Shown: positions 3,884 to 32,000 of the stretch, one piece after another | How the letters are laid out: every line of letters begins with the position of its first letter | Position numbering within the stretch: the first letter of the stretch is position 1 | DNA from: Candidatus Aenigmatarchaeota archaeon | GTDB lineage: Archaea; Aenigmatarchaeota; Aenigmatarchaeia; Aenigmatarchaeales; JACQIB01 | Reading direction: 5' to 3' | NCBI GenBank assembly: GCA_016198755.1 | Contig: JACQIB010000001.1 | Coordinates: 1 to 32,000 of the forward strand | DNA length: 32,000 bases | Position numbers and translations under genes: made by a program | Notes under the pieces: model-generated | What the model saw: the letters and a program-made list of their open reading frames with translations, nothing else | What the model was told of the DNA's origin: nothing | Databases searched by the model: none

Positions 3884-6800
3884 TTAGTTTAGAACAGTGT
3901 TTCTTACTTTTTGAGAATCATTTACAAGATCGTTCCTTGCTTTGTCTACAAATTCCTTTATTTCATCTAGTTTTTTCTTGAAGTTATCATAATCTACTCT
4001 ATTTTTCCCACCCTTTAACAAGTTTGAAAACCCGCCCACCAACCCATCAGTTCTGCCTCTTAAAAACTCTTCCATATTTTCCAAGTTCCCCCCATATTTA
4101 CTCCACATATCAAGTATTTGCTGCTGCGCATCCAAACTGTCCCCAAGCTCGCTTTCCCTCTGCTTCAAATAACGTTTTACCTCCTCCGGTGCATCAGGTG
4201 CAGCAGCAAGTTTTCTTAGCTCATTTACAGTTCTCAGTGCCTCCCCTGCATCATTAGCTTTCACAATAAGCCTGTCAAAATCTTCCATTAGCGTTGGATG
4301 TTCTTCCATAAATTTCTGTACTCTAGTTCCATCAGAAAATACACTTATTCCCCATCCAAAGGTTTCAAAAGCTGCATACCACCCCATAGAAACTCCAAAT
4401 GCCTTTAAACCAGCCGGATTAATTTTCCCTCCAGGAAGCTTTATTTTTCCATACTTTTCTATCCGGTTTTTATATATTCTATGTACAGCAACATCCTTTC
4501 CTATATCCAATGATGTCTCTCTGGCAAAATCTCCGGCAGCTTCACCCAAATTTTTCCTACCACTGTTATAGTCTTCAAGAGCTTTATTATAGCTACCAAG
4601 TATGTCAACTCCAGGCAAGACGGCTTTGTTCAGAACCAGTTTTGCAATGGTTCCAATACTCAAATGTTCAGTCATTTTTTCTACTGTCCAATCAGCACCT
4701 TTCTTAACAATCTTCTTCCCAAGTTCGTTATCTACATTTTTATTGGTGCCCTCTTTGTATGGCATCTTTTGCCCAAAGAAGTCATTCGTCAAACCTTGCT
4801 CAACATCTCTACGATTTATCTTTAATACATCAGATATAATATGGTTTATCCAATTAGAGAGCAACCTGGTGGTATCCAACAAAATGTTGCCCGTTACAAA
4901 TGCTTTCTCGGGCCTCGGATCCACGTAATCCCTTTCCAGTGTTAGTGTCCCATCAGAAAACTCCCTTAGCTCAAGATTAACATCACCATAATTTCCTCTA
5001 TATATTTTTACTGTTCCATGATCAGGTAGCCCCCACATAGTAGGCTGGAAGTCAACGACCTTGAAAATATCCCTTCCTACAACAATTGGCTTGCTGTATG
5101 GCAGAGTTGGAATAAGGTTTGCCAATTTTTCTGTGTTTGCACTAGCAAGGCTTTGCATTGCAGTCTGGTCTGCAACATTGTAGAAGCTCTCTTCTCCAGC
5201 ATCGTTTTTTTGCAGTCTGTAAACATTTCCATTATAAACAATATTCTTCGATTCCCCCCGTTTCATTCCTCTAAATTCTTTGGAAAGAATATCTCCGAGA
5301 CCTCCGCTGAAAGTAGTAATTCCAGACTTAACAGTTGAGCCTATAACAGCATTTTTCATTTCCGTTTCTCTAATCATTTGCAGCTCTTTTTTAATCCTTT
5401 CTTCATTTTCCTGTGCAAATTTATTTGCATAGTTATCCCCGTACTTTTGTTTTATATTGAAGTAATATCCGCCAGGCAGCCACTCAGAAATATACCTTAC
5501 AGAGCTTACATTTCCAAACCCAGCTAGATACCTGCCTGCAACATTCCTCCTTATAGCATTGTTATCCGCACTTGGTGTTATTGAATCTTTTTCAGTTGGA
5601 AATATCTGCACAACTCTTTGTTTAAGTTCAGATAGCTTTGTTTCGAATCCTCTTATTGTCTGTTTTGTAAAAGCAACAGCCGTTCCAATTACGAGAAGGC
5701 CAATTAACGAAACAGCAAGCGCAGTTTCTGTATTATTATCATCATTTTCTCCCCGTCCACCATTTCCGGTTTCAATAGAGAATGGATATGATATATTTGA
5801 TGTATTATCTTCCGAAGATTTAATTAAAACAATAGGAACTTTTATTGTAGCGCGTAATGCATAATCCTTTCCAATAACTTCATTTCTAACTGAAACATCT
5901 CCACCAGCGCTTCCTGAAATAAATGTTTCTGATTGTTTTTCAGTATATCTCAATTCACCAATCTGATTAGAATCATGTACATCCATACAAACCCAGAACC
6001 TATTACCAACAGCAACAGGATATTTTAGTTTGAAAATTCTTTCATCCCCATTTGCTATTGTTGCATTTACAAAACTATCATAATAAAGCAGTGTTCCCAT
6101 CCTATATGCATTATCTGCATACACAAACAGGTTTGTCTGTCGCATAGTTTCCGGAGTAAAGCCAAGAGTACTAACTTCTGTTAATTCTGCTTTTTTTTCA
6201 TTTGTTTCGAATGCTTTACAAAGTTCAATATATCTGTTATCAGGTATAACTCTATTAAGTTTAGAACTGCTGTCAGAATTTTCTGTCTGAAGCTTGATAT
6301 TTTCATAAACAATGTCTTTATTCGGAATAACTTTAATTTCCGAACTATAGACTGCAACTCTTGCATCTATTGCAAAGCTGCCTTGCACATCATTATCAGT
6401 TTTTGTTTGTCCGCCTTCAGGATAGTAATACACACTACTAGAACCACCATTTCTATAGTATGCAAAATATGTTTCTTCTTTGGAGTCTGGTGCACTTAAG
6501 CAGACCCAGAAGTTTCCAGCCACAGGAACTGGAGTTTTAAAGTTAACAATTTCCCCATGTAGATCACCAGTTATAGAATAATTTGAATAGTCTGTACCAA
6601 TAACATTTCCAGGAACTCCACCATTATCAAGCCTAACTGTCCCTTTCAATATTTTGCTGTTAATATCTCCTCCATTAAAACCAGCAGCCCTTATCTGTGT
6701 AACAGCGGCATTTTTATCATTAATACCAACAATATTGCACAGTTCTACTCCGTTTTTAAGTGTACTGCTTGTTTTTTCATCAATATATCCCCAGAATTCC

Positions 6801-8575
6801 CTCAGATTCTTTTCCTTTATAATAGTCCCAGTGAAATTCAGGCTTTCATGAGGTACAGGAATACCCCCAAACCTTGCAAAAATAGCAGTATTGACAGGAT
6901 TTATATATTCATATAATAGTCTTGTTACAGGATTGAAAAAATAATCTGGAAGCCCATTTGAAACTCCTATATTTGTGTCGCGCGTGTAGTATGGTGTGTT
7001 CGTACATATCCAAATTCTATTGTCAGCTAAAATAGGTTCAGGTAAAATAAATGACTCATTATGGTATGATCCTATTTCAATGTCCTTGAAAAGTCTTGAT
7101 AAAAGAATTCCGGGCTTGTTTTTGTTATCATCATAAATCTTTATCTGCACGGTTCTTTTTGCACTTCTCCCGTCAAAACCAGAAACAATAACTTCTTTTA
7201 GTTCAGCTCCATTAAACGGCGGATTCAAAGGTTTGCATAATTCTTTTGGAGCTGTTGTAACATAACCGCCCGAAGCAGAATAACTGCTACTATTAGGCAA
7301 AATCACTTCAGTGTATCCAACAGGCTTATAATCAGCAACAGCAGCAGGATTTGTAATAACATCTGTCCTTATTGCATACTTTCTGGTATAGTGTGCACGG
7401 GTTAAACTCTCGTCTCTATGATTATAATAGTAAGCAAATTCTCCACTTTCGCTAAATGCGAGAAATCCCTGATTTGCATTCTCCACACCGTTGCCCAAGC
7501 AAGCCCAGAACTTCTCAGGCAAATCTACTCTATTCAGTATTATTGTTTCTTCATGAACACCATTTGTTGAAATATATTTTGTCCCTTTTGCAAGCAGAGT
7601 TCCAATTTTCCCAGAGTTATCAGAATAAACTGCGGCACTTATTTTAGATGTTCCTTGATTAAAACCAACACCAGTTACGCCATAAAGCTTGGAATTTGGA
7701 GCTGCGTTTGTAAAAAGTTTGCATACTTCCATGTCAGTAGTACTGGGAATTATGTTATCTGTCAGCATATTAGGAACAATTTCAACATTATCTGTTTTGA
7801 GTGATGTTCTATAACCATCCTTATTATTGTCAGCTGTAATAAAATCATATTCACAAAAATTATCAACCGGATTAAATGTTGGTTTTATACAGTTGTACCC
7901 GCCTCCGCAATCGCTGTCAACACCGCAGTTCAGAACCATGTAAGGTTTTGTTTTTCCGGTGTTTGTATCATTGTATTTTGGAGTAAAACTAGCCCAGCCA
8001 TGTGCAAACCATTGATGTCCACCTACATTTTGTAATGACATATCAAAATAACCAAAAATCGGGGGAGTTCTTATTTCAGCTTGAGGATTACTGTACGTTT
8101 TTTCCACAAAACTATTCTCTGTCTCAGATCTGCAAAACCCTTGTGAAAGCATTCTTGTATTTGTTGTGTTATCAACACAACCATAAGAAAATCCATTATT
8201 CCAGTTCTCATCAAATGCTATTATATCAAAACTAGAAACATGGAAAGATTGGCCAAGTATATTTGTAGCACCATTTACAGTTGCAGTAAACCATGTAGTA
8301 AAGTTTTCGCCAGTAAGCAGGTAAGCTTCTACAGTACCATCACCATCCACATCTGCGTAATGCCAGTCATTTGCACAACTAATTCCCAGCCCAGAAGAGA
8401 AAGGATCATAATCAGTTGGAGCCTGTTTTGTTCCCTCAGAAGGAGTCCAATACATGGAATTATGCGATTCCCCATTGTTATAGAAATCAATGCATATTGG
8501 CTTTACTGCTGCAGCTGGTAGAGCTAGAAAAAGGGAAGTCAATATTAAACCCAGCAAAATATGGCGTGCGTACAT
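3884..8575 (-). CDS. 1563-aa type-I membrane surface protein: signal peptide, about 925-aa ectodomain with four tandem repeats, one TM helix, about 590-aa cytoplasmic domain
   Basis: Uninterrupted 4.7-kb ORF. The N-terminal signal is HILLGLILTSLFLALPAAA. The TM segment ALAVSLIGLLVIGTAVAF (aa 952-969, nt 5669-5722) is followed by TKQTIRGFETK. I recognise no known catalytic motif. Confidence 0.8.
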   Translation of the reverse strand: MYARHILLGLILTSLFLALPAAAVKPICIDFYNNGESHNSMYWTPSEGTKQAPTDYDPFSSGLGISCANDWHYADVDGDGTVEAYLLTGENFTTWFTATVNGATNILGQSFHVSSFDIIAFDENWNNGFSYGCVDNTTNTRMLSQGFCRSETENSFVEKTYSNPQAEIRTPPIFGYFDMSLQNVGGHQWFAHGWASFTPKYNDTNTGKTKPYMVLNCGVDSDCGGGYNCIKPTFNPVDNFCEYDFITADNNKDGYRTSLKTDNVEIVPNMLTDNIIPSTTDMEVCKLFTNAAPNSKLYGVTGVGFNQGTSKISAAVYSDNSGKIGTLLAKGTKYISTNGVHEETIILNRVDLPEKFWACLGNGVENANQGFLAFSESGEFAYYYNHRDESLTRAHYTRKYAIRTDVITNPAAVADYKPVGYTEVILPNSSSYSASGGYVTTAPKELCKPLNPPFNGAELKEVIVSGFDGRSAKRTVQIKIYDDNKNKPGILLSRLFKDIEIGSYHNESFILPEPILADNRIWICTNTPYYTRDTNIGVSNGLPDYFFNPVTRLLYEYINPVNTAIFARFGGIPVPHESLNFTGTIIKEKNLREFWGYIDEKTSSTLKNGVELCNIVGINDKNAAVTQIRAAGFNGGDINSKILKGTVRLDNGGVPGNVIGTDYSNYSITGDLHGEIVNFKTPVPVAGNFWVCLSAPDSKEETYFAYYRNGGSSSVYYYPEGGQTKTDNDVQGSFAIDARVAVYSSEIKVIPNKDIVYENIKLQTENSDSSSKLNRVIPDNRYIELCKAFETNEKKAELTEVSTLGFTPETMRQTNLFVYADNAYRMGTLLYYDSFVNATIANGDERIFKLKYPVAVGNRFWVCMDVHDSNQIGELRYTEKQSETFISGSAGGDVSVRNEVIGKDYALRATIKVPIVLIKSSEDNTSNISYPFSIETGNGGRGENDDNNTETALAVSLIGLLVIGTAVAFTKQTIRGFETKLSELKQRVVQIFPTEKDSITPSADNNAIRRNVAGRYLAGFGNVSSVRYISEWLPGGYYFNIKQKYGDNYANKFAQENEERIKKELQMIRETEMKNAVIGSTVKSGITTFSGGLGDILSKEFRGMKRGESKNIVYNGNVYRLQKNDAGEESFYNVADQTAMQSLASANTEKLANLIPTLPYSKPIVVGRDIFKVVDFQPTMWGLPDHGTVKIYRGNYGDVNLELREFSDGTLTLERDYVDPRPEKAFVTGNILLDTTRLLSNWINHIISDVLKINRRDVEQGLTNDFFGQKMPYKEGTNKNVDNELGKKIVKKGADWTVEKMTEHLSIGTIAKLVLNKAVLPGVDILGSYNKALEDYNSGRKNLGEAAGDFARETSLDIGKDVAVHRIYKNRIEKYGKIKLPGGKINPAGLKAFGVSMGWYAAFETFGWGISVFSDGTRVQKFMEEHPTLMEDFDRLIVKANDAGEALRTVNELRKLAAAPDAPEEVKRYLKQRESELGDSLDAQQQILDMWSKYGGNLENMEEFLRGRTDGLVGGFSNLLKGGKNRVDYDNFKKKLDEIKEFVDKARNDLVNDSQKVRNTVLN
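5831..7729 (-). repeat. Four tandem, divergent protein-domain repeats of about 130-165 aa inside the giant ORF
   Basis: Each unit starts E-[LV]-C-[KN] and has [FI]-W-[AIV]-C 74-79 residues later (Cys pairs 285/359, 447/524, 613/692, 786/863). Tyr-rich and [YF]A[IL]R/FAR/FAID motifs then recur. Units are approximately nt 7346-7729, 6851-7243, 6341-6745 and 5831-6226. Confidence 0.75.
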
Positions 8576-10470: not shown

Positions 10471-11025
10471 TTACCAGGGCACAGCCTTTTCTTTCAGTTT
10501 AAATCCAATAAGGTTCACAGCTCTGTGCAGTATTGGAGTAATAACAAGCATTACAATAACCATACCCCAGTTTATTTCTGTAAACAAAAAGGAAAACACA
10601 AGAGCCCCTAGAATAAAGTTTAACTGATCCAGGAAAGGTATATCAGCTCCTCTATCCATTCCCAACCTTCTTTTGATAAAGCTCCCGCACATATCCCCAA
10701 TCAAAGCCCCAAATGGAACAAGCAAAATTAAAGGAAGAGTATATTGTGGAAGAGAGCCTCCAAGGGATTTTGCATAACTATTCAGGCTGGGCCATAAGAC
10801 AAACTCCGCACTCCCAACCAAACCACCCATACCAACACCCAATCCAAGACCTTCCCAGGTCTTTCCATCACCAAAAATTCTTTTTCCATCCCAAAGAGTT
10901 TTTCCAGAATCTATTGGATGGGTTCCGTGTGCAAGCGGCGGGTACATATTGGCAGCATAAGCAGGAAAAAGAATCCAGAAAGCTTTAACAAATTCTATCC
11001 ATATAAAGAACAGAACTTCAAACAA
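10471..11025 (-). CDS. carS: CDP-archaeol synthase (CarS, DUF46 family)
   Basis: 184 aa and polytopic. Motifs are LFPAYAANMYPPL, FGDGKTWEG and GDMCGSFIKRRLG...G...PFLDQ. Confidence 0.8.
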   Translation of the reverse strand: MFEVLFFIWIEFVKAFWILFPAYAANMYPPLAHGTHPIDSGKTLWDGKRIFGDGKTWEGLGLGVGMGGLVGSAEFVLWPSLNSYAKSLGGSLPQYTLPLILLVPFGALIGDMCGSFIKRRLGMDRGADIPFLDQLNFILGALVFSFLFTEINWGMVIVMLVITPILHRAVNLIGFKLKEKAVPW

Positions 11026-27310: not shown

Positions 27311-29077
27311 CCTTCGGCTCACAGTAAAATACCTGTAGAAATGGTGGCTTTGTATGTTGAACCAATAAAGTGGCATTGGAAAACTTAACTTAGGCTTAAA
27401 AAAGCCTCTTTTTCTCGTGGTTCCCCTCAGGAGCTTTGTGCTATAACTGTGGTCCACGGTGTTTTTCCTTGTTGCAGAAATGCAGCATGCTATCATAGTC
27501 CTTAACAGGACTGGCACATACCGTACGTGCCAACAGCCCTCAATGAATTCAAGTAACGCGGCTGAGCCGAAAGGCAATGACATGCCCATGGGGTATATAA
27601 GAGGGTGCAAAAAAACCGGGCAGTGAAGAAACAAAACTGTCTCTTTGAGCAAAAAGCGATGAAAAAAACAAATGACGTTTCGAGCCCGTAAGCAGATGCT
27701 CATTCGAACCTGGGAGTTCGGGTGTAAGGGCAAATAGGAAGCGATGAAAGGTTTAGAACACCTATTGAGCTTTCAAGATCTTTATGATCGATGATGCCAA
27801 CAGAGGAAAGAGGAAAGGGTCTGGAACATCACAATAAAGGATACTGTATGGTGGATGACTCGGCATGGGTTACCGATGAAGAGCGTAGCAAGCTGCGATA
27901 AGCCTGGGTGAGACGCAAGCAGTCTTAGAACCCGGGATTCTCCAATGCGACCTCGCGCCAGTTTAGGCTGGCATTCGCATACAGAAATGTTTGCGAAAGG
28001 GAACCCGCTGAATTAAAGCATTTTAATAAGCGGAGGAAGAAAAATCAAACGAGATGCCGCTATTAGCAGCGAGCGAAAACGGCAGAGACCAACCCGAATC
28101 TTTTTGTGTAAGCAGGAAGAGATGTGGGGCCAGGTACAATCTTTCTTTCGACCTGAAGTTCCGTGGAACACGGGTGCCATAGAAGGTGAAAGTCCTGTAA
28201 GGGAAAAAAGAAAGATTGATTCTGGAGGAAGAGTACCATTCCCCGATTCGGGAGTGGGAATATGGGGGTCATCAATCTCCAAGTCTAAACATAAACCATG
28301 GCCGATAGCGAAAGAAGTACGGTGACGGAATGTTGAAAAGAATTCTTCACCGAAGATGAAAAGAACCTGAAACCATACAGTGATAGTCGCCCATGGCGCG
28401 AAAGGTGCCCTTGTGAAGGAAAACTGCGTGAGCAGTGTGTACGAACAGGGGCTTACAGCGTTATGGGGTTCGTTTCGAAACACGTGGTAGGGAGTTTGCT
28501 TTCCTGGCGAGCTTAAGCTGTAAAACGGCGAAAGCGTAGCGAAAGCGATTGCACGCAGCCCGCAAGGGTCAGGTGCAAGGTTCGAAAGAGCCTGTAGTCA
28601 GGGGGGCAAGACCCGAAACCTTTCGATCTTACCCTGGGCAGGATGAAGTGCGGCGAAAGCTGCATGGAGGTCCGATACCGATGCTAGCGCTAACTTCTCC
28701 AGCAGGAGAAGCTTCCAAGAAAAATCTGATTGGAGGAGGTGCAACCTGCTCGGGTGACCTGGGGTAAGGGGTGAAAAGCCAATCGAGAAAGGTAATAGCT
28801 GGTTCCTCTCGAAATGTCCCTCAGGACAGCCTCGCTGGAGGCAGCTTGTGGGGTAAAGCACTGATTGGGGTGTTAAGGTGGGAAACCGCCGGCACGCCTG
28901 TCAGACTCATAACCTGCAAGCACCGTAGAAGGCGGGAGTGAGGGTACCTGGGTAAGCTAGGTATCCGAAGCGGGAACAACCGCGCCTGAGGTTAAGGTCC
29001 CTAAATGATAACTAAGTCACAAAAGTGGTGTCAGTCCAAAGACAGACGGGGCGTAGGCTTAGAAGCAGCCAATTTGA

Positions 29078-29934
29078 GTAGTAATCTATACTTTAGAATA
29101 CGAAAATCAATAAAAGGAAGATTGATTAATAGAATAAAGTGCACAAACTACCGCCAAAAAATCCGAAAATCGCGTTGAAGACTGTTAACCTGCAAGGGTT
29201 AACAGCTTTTAGAAAAACTAAGCCTACGATACCCAATTACATAAATCCGCAACTAGCATATCTGGCGGGAGCACTAAGAGATGGTACAATTTCAAAAACT
29301 ACAGGGCCGTATGGCACAAAATACTATCTAGCAATATGCAATAAAGACAAGATATGGCTTGATAGTGTAATACGGCCTACCATAGAAACAATATTCAACA
29401 TAAAACTTGGGAAAATACTGAAAGACAGACAAAAACACCAAATCAGAATAAGAAAATATGGGATAGTGCAATTCTTGGCAGATTTGTTCCAACATCCATA
29501 TGGTAAACAAACCTTATGGAAAACCCCAAAGATCATAGAGGATTCGCATAAAGAAATAAAAAAATGGTTCTTGCGAGGATTCTATGATTCTGAAGGAGGT
29601 TGTGGGAACATAACAAAATTGTATAATAAATATCCGTGGCACAGTCCATTTCCTATCAGATTCCATTCTGGATGGATAAATGAAAAAGAATGTCCTCCAC
29701 TGGATTCTATTAGGTATATATTGACTGAAGATTTTGGTATAAAATGTTCGCCTGTTATCTTTTCTAAGAGATATAAAACAGGCAGATACAAAACTCAAGT
29801 AAAAATGTTTTATATAAAAATTACAGATAAAGAACAAAAATTGAAATTCATTAAAACCATAGGTAGCTCAAATCCAACCAAATTTAAAGAACTATTATTT
29901 TTGAAAGGATTGCTGCTCAAAGCTGAACCGCATA
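29078..29934 (+). mobile_element. 23S intron I1 (about 857 nt) carrying a LAGLIDADG homing-endonuclease ORF, inserted at E. coli position about 1085/1086 (GTPase-associated centre, between the A1067 and A1095 loops)
   Basis: The exon sequence GCAGCCAATTTGA (29065-29077) stops aligning at 29077. Alignment resumes near ATCAACGCGTAACAGCGGACC (29935-). The insert is AT-rich. TTTGAG (29073-29078) can pair with CTCAAA (29917-29922). Boundaries are +/-5 nt. Confidence 0.8.
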
Positions 29935-30068
29935 ATCAACGCGTAACAGCGGACCGTTCGAGGACTGATGCGCTGAAAATGGACGGGAGTAAGTTATCTA
30001 CCGAGACCTCAGATACCAAAAGGTATAGCGTAGAGAGGCGCTCTGTTCGGGTAGAAGTTGGGGCGTAA
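29139..30068 (+). CDS. Double-motif LAGLIDADG homing endonuclease (intron-encoded)
   Basis: Motif 1 is LAYLAGALRDG (aa 39-49) and motif 2 is FLRGFYDSEGG (aa 144-154), spaced about 105 aa apart. The start is GTG. The endonuclease core ends near aa 265. The last 45 or so codons (29935-30068) are read-through into rRNA exon sequence and are probably not part of the real protein. Confidence 0.85.
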   Translation: MHKLPPKNPKIALKTVNLQGLTAFRKTKPTIPNYINPQLAYLAGALRDGTISKTTGPYGTKYYLAICNKDKIWLDSVIRPTIETIFNIKLGKILKDRQKHQIRIRKYGIVQFLADLFQHPYGKQTLWKTPKIIEDSHKEIKKWFLRGFYDSEGGCGNITKLYNKYPWHSPFPIRFHSGWINEKECPPLDSIRYILTEDFGIKCSPVIFSKRYKTGRYKTQVKMFYIKITDKEQKLKFIKTIGSSNPTKFKELLFLKGLLLKAEPHNQRVTADRSRTDALKMDGSKLSTETSDTKRYSVERRSVRVEVGA

Positions 30069-30734
30069 GTTCCAATGGACCGTTCAGAGATGAGAATCCT
30101 ACCGATAGTAGCAGCAAAGAAGAGTTGGAATCTCTTCCGCCCGAAAGGCAAGGTTTTCCCGGCAACGATACTCGGCCGGGAGTAAGCCGATCCTAAGTCG
30201 CCCCCTAACGGACGGCGACGAAAGGGAATACGGTTAATATTCCGTAGCTGCAGCCATAGACGGGGTAACCCAAGCCCAGGCAAAATGTTTTTGGATATGT
30301 TCATGTAAGCGAAGCGTTTAAACCCTTGGAGTTCCGTCAAGGAGAGAAAAGGGTGAATGCGTTACAGGCTTCGGCGCAAGCTGGAGTTGAGCAAATTCCA
30401 AGAATCCATGAAAATTTGCCAGGGAGCGATTGGCTGCATTCGTACTCAGAACCGACGCAGGTGACCTTGTCTGAGAAGGACGTGGCGTGACGAGATACAC
30501 CAGGCTAGGGAACTCGGCAACACTGGCCGCGTACGTTCGCTATAAGCGGTGCCCATCTAGAGATAGGTGGGTCTCAGTGACCAGGGCCAAGCGACTGTTT
30601 AACAAAAACGTAGCCGGTTGCTATGCGGAAACGCTGTGTATAACCGGTGAGGCCTGCCCAGTGGCGGTGTGTCAAACTCGGTTTCAACCGAGCTAAGCCC
30701 CGCTAAACGGCGGCGGTAACTCTGACCGTCTTAA

Positions 30735-30775
30735 TCCAATCATGTAGAGAAATCTGTATGGTTGCATTGGGTACA
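30735..30775 (+). other. 23S insertion I2 (41 nt) directly 3' of helix 69 (E. coli about 1928/1929); putative mini-intron
   Basis: ACCGTCTTAA | TCCAATCATGTAGAGAAATCTGTATGGTTGCATTGGGTACA | GGTAGCG. The insert folds as CCAAT/ATTGG plus CATGTAGA-GAAA-TCTGTATG (GNRA loop). Confidence 0.6.
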
Positions 30776-30910
30776 GGTAGCGTAATCCCTTGCCGATTAA
30801 ATGTCGGCCTGCATCAATGGCTTAACGACTTGGCCGCTGTCCCGGTCTGGAACTCGGCGAACTTGCTATTGTGGTGAAAAGGCCACAGACCCTCAGAGGG
30901 AATCGGAAGA

Positions 30911-31171
30911 AGTGCTCTCGAAAATTTTAAAAAATAAAAATAGGTGATAAAAATGAGAGAAATCAAAAATTTAATAGAGACAAAGTCTTGCGATCCTATA
31001 ACAGCATTAAATGTTGCAACACAAATAGTGTCAGCAGGAGCAGCAGTTGCATCTGTATACTATGCATCTAAAAAGAAATAAAATAAATACCTACCAACAT
31101 AAGCGAGAAGGTATTATGATCATGAATAGTTAGAATAGAATTTGAGCATTTCTCCGACCTCATAGAGAAGA
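30911..31171 (+). other. 23S insertion I3 (261 nt, AT-rich) within GGAAGA|CCCC (E. coli about 2058-2063); putative intron with a micro-ORF
   Basis: Removing it gives ATCGGAAGACCCCGTGGAGC, which matches the archaeal-type G2058 sequence. GAAGA is repeated at both junctions, so there are six equivalent placements. AGTGCTC (30911-17) pairs with GAGCATT (31144-50), and TCGGA (30903-07) pairs with TCCGA (31153-57). Confidence 0.65.
30953..31081 (+). CDS. Intron-encoded 42-aa hydrophobic micro-ORF (MREIKNLIETKSCDPITALNVATQIVSAGAAVASVYYASKKK)
   Basis: ATG is preceded by AGGTGAT (30942-30948), a 7-nt match to the anti-SD of archaeal 16S. The C-terminal half is a roughly 23-residue hydrophobic segment ending in KKK. 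I recognise no homing-endonuclease motif. Coding status is unproven. Confidence 0.35.
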   Translation: MREIKNLIETKSCDPITALNVATQIVSAGAAVASVYYASKKK

Positions 31172-31591
31172 CCCCGTGGAGCTCTGCGGCAGCCTGTCGT
31201 TGCTGTGCGGTCGCGGTTTCATAGAGTAGTTGGGAGAGGTTATATCAGCGTTTTCGGGCGCTGGTTACTCGGCAATGTAACACCAACATCTCGTGACTGT
31301 ACTGCTAACCTCGACTCGGGGGACACCGATTGGTGGGCCGCTCGGCTGGGGCGGTACGCTCATGACAGGAGATCATGAGCGCGCAAAGTTATCCTCATCC
31401 CGGTCAGAAATCGGGAGTAGAGTGTAAACGCAAAAGGATGACTGACTGTGTTCCGCAAAGCAAGGAACGCAGACGCGAAAGCGTGCGTTAGCGATACACC
31501 GAGTGGTCTTTGATGGATTTCGGTGACTTCAGAAAAGCTACCCCGGGGATATGGGTTGGCGCAGAGAAGCGGGTTTTCTTGGAACAATTTA

Positions 31592-31649
31592 ATAAGGCAA
31601 AGCTATCTTGCCAATAGAAATATTGGTTTGCAAAGCAAGCTTTATGCTA
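31592..31649 (+). repeat. Copy 1 of a roughly 57-nt direct repeat inside intron I4
   Basis: ATAAGGCAAAGCTATCTTGCCAATAGAAATATTGGTTTGCAAAGCAAGCTTTATGCTA. It contains the hairpins GGCAA..TTGCC and CCAATA-GAAA-TATTGG. Confidence 0.85.
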
Positions 31650-31725
31650 CACATACGTGTAGTGATTTTTCTAGAAAATCCGTGATAACCATCATTCTTC
31701 CACACATGCTATGATCGTACCTTGT

Positions 31726-31782
31726 ATAAGGCAAGCTTACTTGCCAATAGAAATATTGGTTTGAAAAGCAAGCTTTATGCTA
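31726..31782 (+). repeat. Copy 2 of the roughly 57-nt direct repeat inside intron I4
   Basis: ATAAGGCAAGCTTACTTGCCAATAGAAATATTGGTTTGAAAAGCAAGCTTTATGCTA. It is identical to copy 1 over the central CTTGCCAATAGAAATATTGGTTTG and terminal AAAGCAAGCTTTATGCTA. The differences fall in the first hairpin loop. Confidence 0.85.
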
Positions 31783-31876
31783 ATCAGAGTTTGAGAGCAA
31801 TTACTTTTTGTGGAAGAACATCTCTGCGCCAAGCCACTTCATAACAGAGTCGTGGCGGGCGAGAGCTCCTATCGAC

Positions 31877-31938
31877 ATTTCGTCGAGTATAGGGTTTCAA
31901 TTTTAGAGTTAGCTATGCCAATATTCGCGGAACGAAAA
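31877..31938 (+). other. 23S insertion I5 (62 nt) in helix 89 (E. coli about 2483/2484); putative mini-intron or hairpin insertion
   Basis: CCTATCGAC | ATTTCGTCGAGTAT...ATATTCGCGGAACGAAAA | CCCGCGCG. Removing it lets GCGGG pair with CCCGC as in H89. The insert's ends pair: TTTCGT/ACGAAA and CGAGTAT/ATATTCG, with a CGGA bulge. Confidence 0.6.
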
Positions 31939-32000
31939 CCCGCGCGTTGCTACCTCGCTGTCGGCTCCCCCCCTCCTGGCTGTGCAGTAGCAGCCAAGGG

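Follow-up and report, generated by a model that had tools for sequence, protein, structure and literature searches.

Five putative bulge-helix-bulge introns at functional centres of a 23S rRNA gene from a Candidatus Aenigmarchaeota archaeon

Results

A 23S rRNA gene with five insertions

The DNA examined here (the window) is a whole stretch of 32,000 nt from contig JACQIB010000001.1, assigned to Candidatus Aenigmarchaeota, a lineage of the DPANN archaea, and it ends within a 23S (large subunit, LSU) rRNA gene that is interrupted by five insertions, I1 to I5, which we interpret as probable introns of the archaeal bulge-helix-bulge (BHB) type (Table 1). Sites are numbered according to the E. coli (Ec) 23S rRNA, and the gene was aligned with the Rfam covariance model (CM) LSU_rRNA_archaea (RF02540), by blastn against E. 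coli rrlH and by hand. The match to RF02540 starts at 27827 and scores 1853 bits, and within the window the exons add up to 2661 nt and the introns to 1513 nt. All five insertions lie at functional centres, in universally conserved 23S sequence, and they are AT-rich (34% GC versus 53% for the exons), a difference that we count in favour of BHB introns. A preliminary description of the locus had reported at least five insertions with about 1.5 kb of extra DNA and had assigned four of them to the functional core of the ribosome. The CM and E. coli alignments bear out both points, and I1, in the GTPase-associated centre, belongs with the other four. The same CM alignment speaks against the alternative that the blocks are expansion segments, as they interrupt the conserved core and not variable segments.

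Scanned on its own, the sub-window 28850-30250 aligned to model positions 978-1536, and 30690-32000 aligned to positions 1987-2640, where the match is cut by the window end. In the sub-window scans the CM alignment jumps by about 855 nt after 29066, by 42 nt after about 30733, by about 271 nt near 30900-31170 and by 375 nt at 31563-31937. The rrlH and hand alignments resolve the last of these blocks into 292 nt and 62 nt on either side of a 34-nt exon, so that there are five insertions in total. A Rfam search of the whole window returned what appeared to be a complete, untruncated 23S gene (model 1-2987) that ended at 31630 and contained a single intron, a structure that was rejected on the evidence of the sub-window scans. 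The false 3' end arises because the local alignment spans introns close to where the sequence stops, and automatic annotation by cmscan of the whole window would put the end of the gene in the wrong place.

Table 1. Features of the 23S rRNA gene in the window, with their coordinates and the evidence used to place them
Feature	Coordinates	Strand	Description	Basis
Partial 23S (LSU) rRNA gene	27827..32000	+	Ec ~1-2545; runs off window end	RF02540, rrlH blastn
Exon 1	27827..29071	+	Ec ~1-1077; 51% GC	CM, rrlH alignment
Intron I1 (putative)	29072..29927	+	856 nt; 33% GC; Ec 1077/1078	CM, boundary scan, relatives
LAGLIDADG homing-endonuclease open reading frame (ORF; putative)	29139..29927	+	263 codons, wholly in I1; two motifs	
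Exon 2	29928..30733	+	Ec 1078-1927	CM, rrlH alignment
Intron I2, mini-intron (putative)	30734..30774	+	41 nt; Ec 1927/1928 (archaeal site L1927)	CM, rrlH, relatives
Exon 3	30775..30901	+	Ec 1928-2054	CM, rrlH alignment, L011 comparison
Intron I3 (putative)	30902..31163	+	262 nt; 32% GC; Ec 2054/2055	Junction rule, L011 intron-less allele, assembly L061
ORF in I3 (MREIKNLIETKSCDPITALNVATQIVSAGAAVASVYYASKKK)	30953..31081	+	42 codons; GGUGAU 5 nt upstream	
Exon 4	31164..31550	+	Ec 2055-2449	CM, rrlH alignment, L011 comparison
Intron I4 (putative)	31551..31842	+	292 nt; Ec 2449/2450, adjoins A2451	CM, rrlH, assembly L061
Exon 5, micro-exon	31843..31876	+	34 nt; Ec 2450-2483; includes A2451	Gapless rrlH alignment; skipped by CM
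Intron I5, mini-intron (putative)	31877..31938	+	62 nt; Ec 2483/2484 (H89)	rrlH alignment, junction rule
Exon 6	31939..32000	+	Ec 2484-2545; window end cuts off rest	CM, rrlH alignment

Splice-site geometry and natural intron-less alleles

Intron boundaries were assigned with a rule taken from the geometry of the pre-tRNA splicing motif. Helix H is built by pairing of nucleotides -6 to -3 of the upstream exon and nucleotides n-5 to n-2 of the intron, the 5' bulge comprises two exon nucleotides and one intron nucleotide, and the 3' bulge comprises two intron nucleotides and one exon nucleotide. Helix h is formed by the paired intron ends that adjoin the 5' bulge, and h' is an exon-exon helix. 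Every boundary pair near each insertion was scanned against this rule and then re-scored. Helix H is paired at all four positions in I1 to I4 and at three of four in I5, the splice sites fall at bulge position 2|3, and at least seven of the first eight positions of h are paired in I1, I3, I4 and I5. When position pairs in the 23S gene are drawn at random, only 0.015% combine H=4/4 with h of at least 7/8. Removal of the introns gives back the conserved 23S consensus exactly and without indels, as judged against the CM, E. coli and, for the regions of I2, I4 and I5, the consensus of relatives that have no intron there. BHB-type geometry, which the preliminary description had proposed to look for, is present at all five junctions, mostly in the relaxed hBH form that lacks h'. 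Of the sizes given there (857, 41, 261, 292 and 62 nt), those of I2, I4 and I5 stand together with their boundaries, whereas I1 and I3 become 856 and 262 nt, their boundaries having been 6-9 nt off (29078-29934 for I1 and 30911-31171 for I3).

The rule can be calibrated on natural alleles. Two ENA contigs, L011 and L012, one of them a Rifle aquifer scaffold, carry a 90%-identical homologue of the endonuclease encoded in I1. The 23S exons of L011 are 97-100% identical to those of the window, whereas the intron sets differ. Both alleles have I1 (92% identical) and I2 (a single substitution, C30765U). L011 lacks I3 and reads CAGAGGGA|AGAGAAGACCCC at that site, which is exactly the ligated product predicted by the rule. 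Four introns are found in L011 only, at window positions 28977/8 (Ec 981), 30520/1 (Ec 1677), 31179/80 (Ec 2070) and 31409/10 (Ec 2310), and in all four H is paired 4/4 and h has 5 bp or more. Their removal reproduces the window sequence, which here represents the intron-less allele. Thus, the rule is confirmed on five natural cases. Over the same stretch L011 has at least six complete introns plus the beginning of I4 at its contig end, and the two near-identical alleles have nine intron sites in all. Since I3 is present in the window only and four introns are present in L011 only, as would be seen for mobile introns, the insertions are optional elements that were recently gained or lost and not expansion segments.

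Independent Logan assemblies of other samples, which belong to a groundwater series, contain I1, I2, I3 and I4 at 100% identity. When metagenomes were scanned with an exon 20-mer, 43 loci were obtained, all of which are only 65-79% identical, and for this reason the scan provided no intron-less alleles for I1, I4 and I5. Several Logan contigs end inside the 23S gene (L002 and L003 at 29961, L004 at 30503 and L008 at 30913); these breaks come from different samples and lie 12-34 nt from intron borders or polymorphic sites, which suggests that intron content varies within a sample.

Contig breaks of this kind in several samples could also point to a chimeric assembly, or the gene might be a decaying rRNA pseudogene. 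The source is a metagenome-assembled genome, and the nucleotide equivalent to Ec A2503, at window 31958, is a C (ACCUCGCUGUCGG). A2503 is a nearly universal residue of the peptidyl-transferase centre and the target of RlmN and Cfr; three distant relatives (L025, L017 and L026) read CUCCGCCGUCGG in this region. A pseudogene or chimera nevertheless seems very unlikely to us because the exons show strong conservation (1853 bits in the match to the archaeal LSU model, and 97-100% identity to an independently assembled relative from other sites) and because separate assemblies of other samples contain I1 to I4 at 100% identity. Moreover, every conserved core is intact once the introns are removed.

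Intron I1 and its putative homing endonuclease

I1 is located in H43/H44, and its junction is of the hBH form, in which H is CAGC/GCUG, the bulges read CA|A (5') and AA|C (3') and h extends over at least 12 bp. The earlier boundary was rejected because the pairing of helix 43 in the CM depends on the CGC of exon 2. Proteins homologous to that of I1 (47-50% identity) are encoded at the same rRNA site in L013, L062, L064 and L065. All four keep CAGC/GCUG as H along with the bulges (CA|A; AA|N or AU|U), and helix h occurs there in four further sequence versions with compensatory changes.

As the preliminary description had stated, a homing-endonuclease ORF is confined to the first insertion; it is the only long ORF among the five, with nothing comparable in I2 to I5. 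The predicted protein has two motifs, LAYLAGALRDG and FLRGFYDSEGG, and residues D48/G49 and D150/G153 are invariant across 13 homologues, which places it in the LAGLIDADG family as far as the sequence can tell. Pfam found no match at E<=1e-3 for the ORF alone, and the family assignment therefore needed an alignment of homologues. Its own Pfam match is weak (E=0.0033, 18.1 bits versus a cut-off of 22.5), PF14528 is recorded on seven of twelve homologues, and a profile searched against the PDB matched 2dch, annotated as a 'putative homing endonuclease' (E=5e-7), and I-DmoI (E=0.008). The sequence of the intron-less site, GCTTAGAAGCAGCCA|CCGCATAATC, is the candidate target of the enzyme.

The ORF has no stop codon inside the intron, and the unspliced frame reads GCU-GAA and continues to 30068, 47 codons into exon 2. 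Circularisation of I1 would give AUU-UGA as the next codons. The ORFs of both the window and L011 are without a stop at the junction core (window 29922-29927 / 29072-29077), while the L013 homologue (about 10795-10812) has a UGA stop embedded in this conserved core (GGC-UGA-A).

Two splicing models for the mini-intron I2

The L1927 site occupied by I2 is known to harbour an intron in Vulcanisaeta and Aeropyrum (PMC2602781). If all 41 nt are removed, the junction would be a relaxed one with a 3-bp h' (ACC/GGU), a 3' bulge AC|A and H GUCU/GGGU (one G-C and three G-U pairs), but helix h does not adjoin the bulge, and in place of the 5' bulge there is a 3x2 internal loop, which contains the 5' splice site and stands beside a 13-bp hairpin. 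The junction expected from this model is CUUA|AGGUAGCG. At the I2 site 32 intron-less loci read GUCUUAA|GGUAGCG (GUCUUAAGGUAGCG) without variation, and hence the 41 nt must come out exactly. The site is also occupied by introns in L041 (59 nt) and L021 (137 nt), which are spliced after CUUA. Both are canonical hBH introns, with H GUCU/GGAC and GUCU/GGAU, respectively, and the same exon strand GUCU as in the window. By comparison with these, the I2 of the window is a weakened version of the I2-site intron.

An alternative for I2 only is that the splicing endonuclease EndA uses a cleaner hBH motif within the insertion, in which case 33 nt (30741-30773) would be removed and 8 nt would be left at Ec 1928/1929, with AAUCCAAU|CAGGUAGCG as the expected junction. 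The internal motif consists of H UCCA/UGGG, bulges AU|C and UA|C and h AUGUAG/UUGCAU, such that a 6-bp h stands directly at the bulge and H is stronger than in the 41-nt model. The sole difference in L011, C30765U, keeps its pair as a G-U. We find this model doubtful because the 8 nt would stay in an otherwise invariant sequence: every intron-less relative has exactly the conserved sequence, the introns of L041 and L021 use the exon strand GUCU, and all other introns tested restore the consensus exactly.

Introns I3 to I5 and the case for other intron classes

I3 has H GAGG/CCUC, bulges GA|A and AU|A and an h of 5 bp, a bulged A and a further 9 bp. A GAAGA direct repeat at both ends had caused its boundary to be misplaced in the preliminary description, which put the insertion at the 2058-2062 (macrolide) site; the intron-less allele of L011 shows the product, which fixes the boundaries and moves the insertion to Ec 2054/2055. 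The 42-codon ORF in I3 has no Pfam match, and its sole match in the protein database is itself on a Logan contig.

I4 combines H GGGG/CUUC with a 16-nt terminal stem (31552-31567/31821-31836) that is 94% complementary. Its minimum free energy is -105 kcal/mol, compared with -66 +/- 4.7 for shuffled sequences (z=-8.3). Two 50-nt direct repeats (31600-31649 and 31733-31782) are 94% identical and each contains the hairpin CCAAUAGAAAUAUUGG; the repeats were not found elsewhere in the window or in 61 loci.

In I5, H AUCG/CGAA is paired at three of four positions, the bulges are AC|A and AA|C and h has 6 bp. The predicted spliced product matches both E. coli and L017, a relative without the intron, in length. 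When relatives with introns at the I4 or I5 sites were sought by regex, only the window was found. The introns of L026, L044 and L049 in the H89 loop were considered as relatives of I5 and rejected, as they occupy a different site.

A U precedes I4, as group I introns require, and its site at Ec 2449 is a classical group I site in organelles. Group I introns also occur beside BHB introns in DPANN LSU genes, where they have been found at 1923, 1931, 2500 and 2593 (PMC6125680). Even so, there is only a slight chance that some or all of the insertions are group I or group II introns. Searches for group I (RF00028, Intron_gpI) and group II introns gave no match at E<=10 with permissive filters, and only at I4 is the last exon nucleotide a U. 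A terminal G (omega-G) is absent from all five introns, none begins with GUGYG and the termini do not fit group II. I2 and I5 are far too small for either class, and all five insertions have EndA-type geometry with intron ends that pair directly together.

A different question is whether the exons are joined. The insertions might be excised with the exons left unligated, giving a fragmented 23S rRNA like that resulting from bacterial intervening sequences, or I2 and I5 might be kept as micro-expansions. Ligation cannot be seen from sequence alone, I2 and I5 have the weakest motifs and I2 folds as a simple hairpin. Fragmentation, on the other hand, would release a free 34-nt piece carrying A2451, and archaeal BHB rRNA introns are known to be ligated (PMC4496867, PMC5829648). 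Moreover, the sites are single-stranded or core positions without variation in any relative examined (GUCUUAAGGUAGCG in the 32 intron-less loci), and the I2 site has canonical hBH introns in L041 and L021. We thus regard fragmentation or retention as unlikely, and splicing with ligation as the better account.

Introns and gene organization in relatives

Several more distant relatives in the metagenome set carry mini-introns and large introns in the same part of the 23S gene. The preliminary description had called the density of insertions unusual, which is true in comparison with cultured archaea but not with L011 or with these relatives. Mini-introns of 35-48 nt are found in the H69 loop (around Ec 1913), after GGCGGUA, in L013, L051, L017 and L028, and the 48-nt one of L013 obeys the same hBH rule. 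L038 and L053 have introns at GACCGU|...|CUUAA. In L013 (GCA_975962685.1, 962-13000), a 3091-nt 16S gene with two LAGLIDADG ORFs is followed by a tRNA, by about 4.3 kb with protein genes mostly on the opposite strand, and then by a 23S gene that has an additional LAGLIDADG ORF besides the I1-site intron and the H69-loop mini-intron.

Seven JGI contigs of about 3.0-3.1 kb (L014, L015, L022, L043, L050, L052 and L056) contain an intron-less LSU that is circularly permuted, and the ends of L014, which was examined in detail, overlap. These contigs look as if they had been assembled from circular 23S molecules. Circular 23S rRNA has been reported in archaeal ribosomes (PMC12918454), and the permuted contigs fit that report.

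Genes elsewhere in the window

Rfam and tRNA scans found neither a small-subunit (SSU) rRNA nor a tRNA anywhere in the window, so that, upstream, no 16S gene lies within 27.8 kb of the 23S gene, in agreement with the earlier statement that it is unlinked to 16S. Other products encoded in the window include CDP-archaeol synthase, FEN1, TruD and further archaeal proteins. Seven of the encoded proteins match GenBank entries of a Candidatus Aenigmarchaeota archaeon, within MBI4015095-MBI4015127, without any difference. For the neighbouring phosphoglycerate mutase, a scan of genome contigs for syntenic relatives found only a Thermococcus gene with 31% identity. A 1563-aa ORF on the reverse strand (3884-8575), between TruD and a DUF63 membrane protein, has no Pfam match.

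Discussion

We conclude, with a probability of roughly 85%, that the five insertions are archaeal BHB introns in a single-copy-like 23S rRNA gene of Candidatus Aenigmarchaeota. Their splicing is inferred from sequence. EndA, the tRNA-splicing endonuclease, would cut inside both bulges, and an RtcB-type ligase would join the exons and circularise the introns, as is established for this intron class (PMC4496867, PMC5829648). Ligation would restore the conserved GTPase centre, the H69/H71 junction, the peptidyl-transferase ring and H89. I1 is probably mobile, in that its LAGLIDADG enzyme would cut the intron-less allele at GCAGCCA|CCGC and repair would copy the intron in. I2 to I5, which are without an endonuclease, are probably degenerate descendants of I1-like elements.

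Several observations weigh against this conclusion. None of the five junctions is a canonical hBHBh' motif; the relaxed forms hBH or HBh' are found instead, with h' of only 0-1 bp in I1, I3, I4 and I5. In the 41-nt model, three of the four H pairs of I2 are G-U and a 3x2 internal loop replaces the 5' bulge, and a cleaner hBH motif lies wholly inside the insertion (30741-30773). I5 is present only in the window, with no second assembly, one pair of its H is mismatched, its fold is weak (z=-1.4) and no relative shares its site. Neither EndA nor RtcB was found among the window ORFs that were scanned. Finally, divergent group I introns can escape the general Rfam model for this class (PMC6125680).

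Since h' is absent or irregular in four junctions and the bulge is disrupted in the fifth, these would be relaxed hBH or HBh' substrates, and the EndA of the host must accept such substrates. A host enzyme of relaxed specificity, which the preliminary description had also inferred, is a reasonable expectation by analogy with tRNA introns. Non-canonical junctions are reported to be cleaved only by the broad-specificity (alpha-beta)2 and epsilon2 EndAs, and loop-bearing alpha4 EndAs in DPANN lineages have been linked to more tRNA gene disruption (PMC5829648). The non-canonical tRNA introns (hBH, HBh' and BHL) have the geometry seen here, with one outer helix missing or one bulge disrupted. In the present case, however, it is 23S rRNA that would be cut, and the introns reach lengths of up to 856 nt.

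The closest counterparts in rRNA are the 23S BHB introns of Crenarchaeota, including those of Desulfurococcus mobilis (I-DmoI), Vulcanisaeta (Vdi141.L1927, I-Vdi141I), Aeropyrum pernix and Pyrobaculum. The introns of the window have in common with these their conserved sites, protein-dependent splicing, which is predicted for the window, a BHB core made from the exon and the 3' end of the intron, paired intron termini and an optional LAGLIDADG endonuclease. I2 is at the L1927 site itself (PMC2602781), and the nearest solved relatives of the I1 enzyme include I-DmoI, an archaeal LAGLIDADG endonuclease. However, the host here is a mesophilic groundwater DPANN archaeon and not a hyperthermophilic crenarchaeote, and the introns number five in 2.55 kb, with nine sites across two alleles. 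In contrast to the crenarchaeal introns, those described here mostly lack h', four of the five have no endonuclease gene and two are only 41 and 62 nt long.

Multi-intron LSU genes have also been described from DPANN archaea by Nawrocki, Jones and Eddy in 2018 (PMC6125680). Those genes come from the same superphylum and the same type of habitat, with Rifle groundwater contigs among the relatives, and they likewise have several introns, including BHB introns and LAGLIDADG ORFs. That study describes group I introns and only draws the BHB introns that co-occur with them, whereas none of the introns in the window is group I by the tests run. A further parallel is provided by rRNA insertions in the candidate phyla radiation. 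They occur in ultra-small groundwater hosts, are numerous at conserved sites, often have LAGLIDADG ORFs and are absent from transcripts (Brown 2015 as cited in PMC11270868; PMC11270868). The hosts in that case are bacterial.

Much of what we describe has precedents. Archaeal 23S BHB introns, the L1927 site, variants with and without a LAGLIDADG endonuclease and stable circular introns are already published, as is the presence of several introns in one DPANN LSU gene (PMC6125680). In a 2015 account, Thermoproteales were stated to have the most numerous archaeal rRNA introns (PMC4496867). New here are the host phylum and the density of introns, namely five in the window, nine sites over two alleles and a 34-nt micro-exon; some of the intron sites are possibly new as well. 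A bolder view, which we consider improbable, is that this Aenigmarchaeota lineage has fast-turnover BHB introns, with nine sites in two 97-100% identical alleles, endonuclease-less non-canonical mini-introns and the A2451 micro-exon, and that its ribosome production would depend on EndA beyond that of any cultured archaeon. On that view I3, with its 42-codon ORF, or I4, which is structured and has a duplication, might be a functional stable circular RNA.

A practical consequence is that such rRNA genes break assemblies, escape rRNA detection that relies on primers or length and confuse annotation by covariance models. Near-identical alleles with different intron sets are in turn a natural experiment by which splice sites can be fixed without RNA data, and the allele pair described here shows recent gain and loss of introns. 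The accepted mechanism of archaeal splicing is unaffected by these findings. What they would change is the known reach of this intron class, as a heavy load of rRNA introns is extended from hyperthermophilic Crenarchaeota to a mesophilic DPANN lineage, and the relaxed hBH-type junctions predict that the organism has an EndA of broad specificity.

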